A stretch of 30,838 nt of DNA, taken from Acidilobaceae archaeon (GTDB taxonomy: Archaea > Thermoproteota > Thermoprotei_A > Sulfolobales > Acidilobaceae). Below are positions 22,890 to 23,477 of the stretch, in pieces; within the stretch, counting starts at the first letter, position 1, and each line of letters starts with the position of its first letter. Made by a program: the position numbers and the translations under genes. The notes under the pieces are model-generated. The model did no database searches. It worked only from the letters and a program-made list of their open reading frames with translations, and was not told the DNA's origin. The DNA is taken from contig JALWGG010000186.1 in NCBI GenBank assembly GCA_027013765.1, forward strand, positions 1 to 30,838, given 5' to 3'.

Positions 22890-23445
22890 GGGGGTCTACG
22901 TAGTGTATAGTGGGACAGCCGTTACAGCACCAATATTCAAGCCCAGAGGATATGCTAGCCAAGGTGGCAGGATGGATGTGATAGCATCAAGCATATTAGC
23001 AGCTCAACACGACCCCAACCCAGGCTTCTACGCGGCCCTACTAGGACCCCCAGACCCCCCCAAGATACTGAGGGTTGACAGGTGGGGGTTTAGGAGTGAG
23101 TATCATGTGGTTGCAGAGGTCCTCGCAGGGTTCAAGAACGGGGGGATGATTAGTATAAGCAGGGGAGACCCCCTAGACCCAGTATACCAGTGTAGAGAGT
23201 GCACGGTATTCCTTGTAGAGGAGGGCGGCAATGATGTCTCAGTCTACAGGGATAAGCTGTGCGGAGACACTGTATACCTGCTAGGAGGCCACACAGGATT
23301 CCCCCAAAGCCTCTACAGCGTCCTGGAGGGGGTGAGTGATGCAACAATAAGCCTGGGCTCCATAAGCCTACAGACATACCAAGCAATACTATACCTAGCA
23401 TGGGCCAGGAGCGTCAACTGCGGCCCGTCCAGCCGCAGGGAATAG
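22879..23445 (+). CDS. trmY: tRNA pseudouridine-54 N1-methyltransferase-like SPOUT protein (DUF358)
   Basis: A-x-T-x-x-x-F ... GGRMDVI N-terminal motif, LLGPPDPPK, and the SPOUT knot FLVEEGG / YLLGGHTGF / ISLGSISL. GTG 22879 follows GGTGGAGGGG. Confidence 0.78.
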   Translation: MAGRGVYVVYSGTAVTAPIFKPRGYASQGGRMDVIASSILAAQHDPNPGFYAALLGPPDPPKILRVDRWGFRSEYHVVAEVLAGFKNGGMISISRGDPLDPVYQCRECTVFLVEEGGNDVSVYRDKLCGDTVYLLGGHTGFPQSLYSVLEGVSDATISLGSISLQTYQAILYLAWARSVNCGPSSRRE

Positions 23446-23477
23446 ATCACCATTCATCCTAGGTGTTGGCTCATCAT
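23429..23477 (-). ncRNA. Dual-guide box C/D sRNA predicted to direct 2'-O-methylation of 16S rRNA
   Basis: Minus strand reads ATGATGA (C) - GCCAACACCTAGG - ATGA (D') - ATGGTGA (C') - TCTATTCCCTGCGG - CTGG (D, non-canonical), 49 nt in total. The guides complement CUAGGUGUUGG and CCGCAGGGAA, two nearby crenarchaeal 16S segments as recalled from memory. Confidence 0.75.

Follow-up and report, generated by a model that had tools for sequence, protein, structure and literature searches.

Does a short, unannotated stretch of DNA from an Acidilobaceae archaeon encode a dual-guide box C/D sRNA directed at two neighbouring sites of 16S rRNA, and if so, which nucleotides would its guides select? The question arises in a window of 30,838 nucleotides (the whole stretch of DNA analyzed here, numbered from its first letter), which belongs to a metagenome-assembled genome (MAG) that is 77% complete and consists of 294 contigs. 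A preliminary description had proposed such an sRNA, and the proposal is well supported. The element at window positions 23484-23422 on the minus strand is very probably a genuine archaeal box C/D sRNA gene, orthologous to the sR70 of I. hospitalis (IHOsR70) and likely to guide methylation of 16S rRNA at two sites, a reading that draws on conserved guides and a covarying terminal stem.

With its terminal stem included, the gene measures about 63 nt, and its minus strand reads, from 23490 to 23418, ...GGUGGGCCCGG AUGAUGA G CCAACACCUAG G AUGA AUGGUGA UCUA UUCCCUGCGGC UGGA CGGGCC GCAG.... The four strings that the preliminary description took for boxes C, D', C' and D (ATGATGA at 23477-23471, ATGA at 23457-23454, ATGGTGA at 23453-23447 and CTGG at 23432-23429, all on the minus strand) lie exactly there, and under that reading of the boxes the spacers are indeed 13 and 14 nt and the total length 49 nt. 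Box C, located near the 5' end, has the RUGAUGA form expected of it. With box D re-registered as argued below, the C-to-D' spacer is 13 nt; the one between C' and D measures 15 nt when C' is read in the frame homologous to that of relatives, or 12 nt in an alternative frame of C'. The family range is 12-15. The coordinates are collected in Table 1.

Table 1. Features of the sRNA gene and its upstream region, in window coordinates, from the candidate promoter to the 3' end of the terminal stem
Feature	Position	Strand	Remarks
TATA-like element TTATTATA	23509..23516	-	About 27 nt upstream of the terminal stem 5' end; candidate own promoter
Terminal stem, 5' strand, GGCCCG	23479..23484	-	Pairs with CGGGCC at 23427-23422
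Unpaired G	23478	-	Between stem 5' strand and box C; k-turn loop position L1
Box C, AUGAUGA, canonical	23471..23477	-	U2, G3, G6 and A7 invariant in 33 copies
D' guide CCAACACCUAG	23459..23469	-	11 bp with 16S CUAGGUGUUGG; predicted N+5 = CUA[G]G, E. coli 827 equivalent
Spacer G	23458	-	Precedes box D'
Box D', AUGA	23454..23457	-	GA kept; GGGA, GAGA, GUGA, CUGA or CCGA in relatives
Box C', AUGGUGA	23447..23453	-	Frame homologous to GUGAUGA of relatives; A4 replaced by G
Alternative C' frame, GUGAUCU	23450-23444	-	GA at positions 3-4 kept; spacer 12 nt
D guide UUCCCUGCGGC	23432..23442	-	11 bp with 16S GCCGCAGGGAA; predicted N+5 = GCCG[C]AGGG, E. coli 857 equivalent
Box D, UGGA, revised	23428..23431	-	A invariant and G nearly invariant in 33 copies; GA abuts stem
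Terminal stem, 3' strand, CGGGCC	23422..23427	-	Antisense in last codons of convergent PF04013 ORF (22849-23445, +)

No Rfam family matched in the window at the gathering threshold; at permissive E-values, generic archaeal C/D families scored 9-19 bits (the best of them 14-19) against cut-offs of 36-70. The predicted protein-free minimum free energy (MFE) fold has a z-score of -1.8, favours local hairpins and leaves the terminal stem unused, which is not unusual for the box C/D class. Part of the predicted fold involves the unprocessed 3' flank, where GCCGCAG resembles the beginning of the 16S target and pairs with the D guide in an 8-bp hairpin (23420-23441, minus strand); this hairpin would vanish if the RNA were trimmed to its terminal stem.

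We aligned 33 distinct copies of the element. The preferable reading of box D is UGGA, shifted by one base toward the 3' end from the CUGG proposed initially, because its GA is conserved across the family and adjoins the covarying terminal stem, as in normal k-turn geometry. The columns that hold the C, T and G of CUGG vary among the copies, whereas the GA one base downstream is conserved, the same columns reading UGGA, UCGA, UAGA, CUGA, CCGA, ACGA or AUGA. The best register of the terminal helix across the 33 copies leaves one unpaired base on the 5' side and none on the 3' side and yields 115 consecutive pairs; the next-best register yields 87, and registers in which the final A of box D joins the stem yield 0-7. 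Covariation of the stem scores 0.51 against 0.23 in shuffles, with 71% against 52% of cells paired; none of 500 shuffles reached the observed values, and every slid register was beaten.

A k-turn consists of a helix, three unpaired nucleotides and then tandem G.A pairs, and our assignment of individual pairs follows established knowledge of k-turns and box C/D RNAs. In the window, the GGCCCG/CGGGCC helix abuts the GA of box D, and G, A and U are unpaired before the GA of box C. The first two positions of box D are UG instead of CU, so that by analogy the k-turn would have U.G at 3b.3n (in place of U.U) and G.U instead of G-C at 4b.4n; the GA itself is present. The initial suspicion that a non-canonical box D may weaken the second guide was attached to a misregistered CUGG; UGGA is non-canonical as well, but box D is less defective than was thought. 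It is the internal C'/D' motif, to which we return below, that is weak.

How widely is the element distributed? When 121 nt containing the locus were compared by BLAST with 30 relatives, homology was limited to query positions 43-93, and the sRNA as initially proposed occupies positions 44-92. A pattern built from the two guide cores matched 39 times among about 185,000 species genomes. Of these matches, 27 lie on contigs labelled Acidilobaceae, Pyrodictiaceae, Thermodiscus, Aeropyrum or Desulfurococcales, and in every one of these 27 archaeal-labelled matches a box-C-like heptamer directly precedes the D' guide and an NNGA box follows the D guide; the other 12, all bacterial, lack boxes and are chance matches. 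When 301 genomes across the order were scanned, the element turned up in just three families, which carry the labels Acidilobaceae, Pyrodictiaceae and Ignicoccus (19/53 genomes of f1, 15/29 of f2 and 5/6 of f9), and a reversed control pattern had no match in the same 301 genomes.

The 11-nt guides hardly vary among the 33 copies, in contrast to the centre, flanks and synteny. The same-genus copy is 100% identical to the window over box C and the D' guide and 95% over the D guide and box D, compared with 61-65% for the flanking proteins. The arrangement of the PF04013 and DHH genes around the sRNA is kept within the genus only, and outside it the genomic context is different. Box D itself varies by lineage. 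The preliminary description had suggested looking for CTGA in relatives, and canonical CUGA is indeed present in some copies, in two separate lineages; others have the variants listed above. Copies from the genus g15 carry CCAGCACCUAG, which may pair either by wobble or through a compensating change in the target. Seven Pyrodictiaceae copies (L024, L035, L047, L048, L050, L051 and L067) have RUGCUGA as box C, with C at the A of the second sheared pair. In these copies box D is the canonical CUGA, the terminal stems are weak and a TCATCAT is conserved at a distance of 5-6 nt upstream; either their k-turn is unusual or the box is defined differently in Pyrodictiaceae.

The targets had originally been named from crenarchaeal 16S sequence. 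The host MAG has no assembled 16S or 23S gene and three same-genus genomes likewise lack 16S, so complementarity was measured in relatives of the same family and the same order, where those targets are indeed present, in the context ...GGGCUAGGUGUUGGGCGGGC-loop-GCCCGCCCAGUGCCGCAGGGAAGCC.... The D' guide forms 11 Watson-Crick pairs with a target that covers the first three bases of a hairpin stem, and the D guide forms 11 with a target that begins three bases past the hairpin, so that the two sites, 34 nt apart, flank a single hairpin; across both predicted sites the 16S reads GGGCUAGGUGUUGG...GUGCCGCAGGGAAGCC. We take this hairpin to be helix 26, at about positions 829-857 in standard E. coli numbering. 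Three genomes (G016, G076 and G019) contain both a copy of the sRNA and a 16S gene with both targets intact. The claim that two such closely spaced matches are unlikely to arise by chance is borne out: in a control with 200,000 shuffled guide pairs, not one produced two matches of 10 bp or more lying within 100 nt of each other in the 16S of a relative. No other perfect target of the guides was found in the 1.5-Mb host MAG.

Which nucleotides would be modified? The N+5 rule is applied as in Dennis et al. (PMC4644070). At least 9 contiguous Watson-Crick pairs should cover the N+5 position, and the 11 pairs of each guide with relatives' 16S do so. From box D' AUGA, the rule predicts the G of CUA[G]G, as was first proposed; in copies where a CUGA box immediately follows CCUAG, it would predict CUAG[G] instead. 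The second prediction changes. Reading box D as UGGA moves the N+5 position of the D guide onto the C of GCCG[C]AGGG, instead of the neighbouring A that had been predicted as the modified residue (CCGC[A]GGG), and in the copies with a canonical CUGA box D, in both lineages, the rule selects the same C. The E. coli equivalents also need adjustment, from about 829 and 860 to about 827 and 857, as read from the E. coli line of the alignment in Additional file 4 of Dennis et al.

The D guide has secondary sites as well. In the 23S of relatives it can form 9 contiguous Watson-Crick pairs with GGCGCAGGGAA in domain II, and 11 pairs, 2 of them G.U, with GCCGUAGGGGA, which is the 5' strand of the last 16S helix. 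A related observation concerns CCUGCGGCUGGA (23428-23439, minus strand), made up of box D and the end of the D guide that precedes it: in relatives, the 3' strand of that last helix contains the same 12 nt (...GGGGAACCUGCGGCUGGAUCACCUCC). Because other copies differ in the box D portion, this identity is probably a by-product of the likeness between the target and the 5' strand of the last helix. The 16S genes of two relatives are themselves long, about 2.2 kb in the closed 1.7-Mb genome G016 (L012, G016:C1:1218712-1220913) and about 1.96 kb in G012, which implies rRNA introns or insertions.

A comparison of 16S loci (L003, L008, L009 and L011 versus L012, L109, L113 and L114) bears on the link between guide and target. 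Within the host's family, all four genera that have both the sRNA and an available 16S keep both targets, whereas in each of the four genera that yielded no copy the D' target is substituted (GUUAG, GGCGUCGG, GUCGG), one of them also having GCCACAGGG in the D target. In the genomes searched, g3, g7, g9 and g12 lack the sRNA. This pattern suggests that guide and target retention are coupled, bearing in mind that the lineages are not independent. Compensatory change was also sought, using two patterns for altered D' guides, in genera with a differing 16S (G014, G005, G009, G011) and in G003, and the search returned only chance matches devoid of boxes. One apparently compensating sequence, CCGACGCCTAG in G063, was rejected for the same reason.

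The sRNA gene sits between an ORF of the PF04013 family (a putative SAM-dependent RNA methyltransferase) and a DHH-family ORF (23556-24623, +). Its 3' end overlaps, in antisense, the last 24 nt of the convergent PF04013 ORF; overlap with ORF ends is described as common for archaeal sRNA genes in PMC7994747. The TATA-like TTATTATA suggests that the sRNA has an independent promoter, and in most of the family box C is preceded, at 30-40 nt, by an A/T-rich element. A second such string, CTATAAAC at about 23531-23538, resembles a TATA box for the DHH-family ORF. On the plus strand, an ATGATGA at 23491-23497 lies in a stretch (23487-23530) that resembles snoZ7 at 22 bits against a cut-off of 43; it is probably a chance occurrence, having no D box and no conservation at the same-genus locus. 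Among the listed sequencing runs that contain this DNA there are no RNA runs, only DNA runs of hydrothermal-vent metagenomes.

The host does encode the proteins expected of a box C/D RNP: fibrillarin (PF01269, 344 bits) and Nop5 (PF01798, 264 bits) are adjacent on contig C4, and L7Ae (PF01248, 112 bits) is on contig C262. The MAG also holds four more C/D-sRNA-like candidates, at C14(-)3664-3714, C98(-)4005-4061, C136(+)6424-6473 and C263(-)1990-2049; they come from a search with a strict regular expression and a terminal stem of at least 4 bp, which gave 6 matches versus 2 in a reversed-genome control. The candidate on C14 has CUGGUGA as box C' and UUGA as box D.

The internal C'/D' motif appears degenerate in the host genus. 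In the C' box of the window, G replaces the A of the second sheared pair (position 2b); the AUGA of D' is acceptable as a box, and the frame of C' is ambiguous between AUGGUGA and the shifted GUGAUCU. In two same-genus copies, L014 (1229-1307) and L015, a CCCC-GUGU-GGGG hairpin replaces the C'/D' motif, with no GA at the C' position, and yet there is no change in either guide, in box C or in the terminal stem. Considering the G substitution, the 15-nt C'-to-D spacer and the loss of C' within the genus, the D' guide may not be competent for methylation and may act by pairing only. Many family members, however, carry canonical C' (GUGAUGA, AUGAUGA) and D' (CUGA) boxes.

The following sequence of events would accommodate these features. 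The RNA would probably be transcribed from its own TATA-like promoter, and box C, box D and the 6-bp stem would fold into a k-turn that binds L7Ae and then Nop5-fibrillarin, as we infer from the family. The guides would anneal to nascent 16S rRNA at both flanks of the hairpin, the D' guide with CUAGGUGUUGG and the D guide, 34 nt away, with GCCGCAGGGAA. Fibrillarin would then 2'-O-methylate the partner of the fifth guide position upstream of each box, that is, the G in CUA[G]G and the C in GCCG[C]AGGG. In addition, bridging of both flanks may help the hairpin region to fold, in a chaperone-type role.

Perhaps that last role is the main or even the only one, with the RNA serving as a clamp for rRNA folding in which one or both guides pair without methylation, the C'/D' motif (and possibly box D) being too degenerate for fibrillarin. 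We regard this as doubtful. Its attraction lies in the G at position 2b of C' and in L014 and L015, whose unchanged D' guide next to a C' without GA shows selection on pairing in the absence of an intact K-loop; chaperone roles have moreover been proposed for double guides (PMC4644070, PMC7994747). Weighing on the other side are the canonical C' and D' boxes of many family members, the terminal k-turn with both of its GA dinucleotides and the alternative frame of C', which keeps a GA and a 12-nt spacer. A more elaborate scenario, rather improbable in our judgment, would have a lineage-typical box D of the form CU-N-GA (UGGA, UCGA, UAGA) shift the ruler by 1 nt relative to Ignicoccus, the host genus lose a functional C'/D' motif but retain an intact D' guide, and presence of the sRNA across genera track an unchanged 16S target. 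If true, it would provide a natural case of a methylation guide becoming a pure rRNA-folding clamp around the presumed helix-26 hairpin.

Other doubts concern the D guide and the reality of the element. The target of the D guide might be not, or not only, the 16S site but the 23S GGCGCAGGGAA or, in a transient pairing, the 5' strand of the last 16S helix. The extent of those secondary duplexes speaks for this, as do the identity of CCUGCGGCUGGA to the 16S 3' end and the two marks for I70 that Dennis et al. also place in their 23S alignment; it is nonetheless unlikely, because the longest perfect duplex is the one with the 16S site, at a distance of 34 nt from the D' target in a typical double-guide layout, the N+5 pair at the last-helix site would be G.U, and a pyrimidine-rich guide yields many weak, G.U-tolerant matches. 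Quite unlikely, too, is a defective CUGG box D followed by a bulged A, with the D guide directing Am at CCGC[A]GGG. The GCGA of I. hospitalis sR70 directly follows CUGCGG, so that N+5 there would fall on A, and uncertainty of box registers in degenerate archaeal sRNAs is acknowledged in the same source (PMC4644070). With CUGG, however, a G would occupy position 1n, where the k-turn requires an A, and an A would remain unpaired ahead of the stem; against it also stand its variable columns beside the conserved GA, the 115-pair helix register directly after that GA, and the canonical-CUGA copies that put N+5 on C. The UGGA register remains our choice. Is the whole element, finally, a chance motif or a non-RNA element, constrained only by, for example, the end of an ORF or promoter DNA? 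The sub-threshold Rfam matches, the modest z-score and the lack of RNA among the listed runs would fit, but conservation in many genomes of three families in differing contexts, covarying stems, the empty reversed control, an ORF overlap of only 24 nt and an Ignicoccus orthologue detected by RNA-seq leave this reading strongly disfavoured and very improbable indeed.

The dual-guide sRNA so defined is genuine but ordinary: sR70 has already been published, and it is the host gene that is newly delimited. Current understanding of mechanism is unchanged by these findings. Box C/D sRNAs are nevertheless chronically under-annotated in archaeal genomes, especially in MAGs, and a delimited gene with its targets improves that annotation. 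The sR70-type family is absent from Rfam, and the 33-copy alignment, which covers three families and has one published member supported by RNA-seq, is a usable seed for a covariance model; a model dominated by the guides would miss copies whose guides have diverged. The family also offers a modest natural experiment, in the drift of k-turn boxes (UGGA, UCGA, UAGA; RUGCUGA) around fixed guides and in the coupling of guide retention to target.

How does the window element compare with known sRNAs? Generic archaeal box C/D sRNAs (Rfam snoPyro_CD RF00095 and sR7 RF01310 among others; Sulfolobus, Pyrococcus, Pyrobaculum) share its size of about 50-70 nt, the order C-guide-D'-C'-guide-D, a short terminal stem, double rRNA guides within 100 nt and overlap with the 3' ends of neighbouring ORFs; in contrast, the curated families lack these guides and have CUGA where the window has UGGA, and the 15-nt C'-to-D spacer sets the window apart. 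Its degenerate boxes have precedents: such boxes are common in the published sRNAs of M. kandleri and I. hospitalis (PMC4644070), which have RNA-seq support and include boxes AUGAGGA, AUGACGA and GUGAAGA and D boxes CCGA, GCGA and CGGA, so that NNGA D boxes and any nucleotide at box C position 5 are established variation, although the guides and targets of those RNAs differ from the window's. In that published material, as far as accessible, UGGA (or, in another reading, 'CUNGA') as a box D typical of a lineage was not found. Nor were species-specific guide complements for T. tenax, M. kandleri or S. acidocaldarius found in the sRNA lists of Dennis et al., and we make no claim that T19, K22 and K48 guide the same nucleotides.

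The closest known relative is IHOsR70, given at 726164 on the negative strand among the I. hospitalis sRNAs identified by RNA-seq (Dennis, Tripp, Lui, Lowe, Randau 2015, BMC Genomics 16:632, Additional file 1; PMC4644070), with the sequence AUGACGA-CCCAACGCCUAG-CCGA...GUGAGGA-GCUUCCCUGCGG-GCGA. In the same source, 'I70' is marked twice in the 100-column block of the 16S alignment that holds both targets, where the I. hospitalis 16S is identical. The differences from the window are limited in kind. The Ignicoccus boxes are AUGACGA, CCGA, GUGAGGA and GCGA or AGGA, compared with AUGAUGA, AUGA, AUGGUGA and UGGA; the D' guide has A in the window where Ignicoccus has G (which pairs G.U); box D is shifted against the guide by one to three bases between the two RNAs, which means that the nucleotide predicted for the D guide may differ; and the genomic context is not the same. 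Architecture and guide order, on the other hand, are alike, as are the guides themselves (CCCAACGCCUAG and CUUCCCUGCGG beside CCAACACCUAG and UUCCCUGCGGC) and the pair of 16S sites that they address. Considering the near-identical guides, the identical 16S target region and the recovery of the IHOsR70 locus by the two-guide pattern (G084:C1:726114-726150, minus strand), which matches five of the six Ignicoccus-type genomes, the window element is the orthologue of I. hospitalis sR70.
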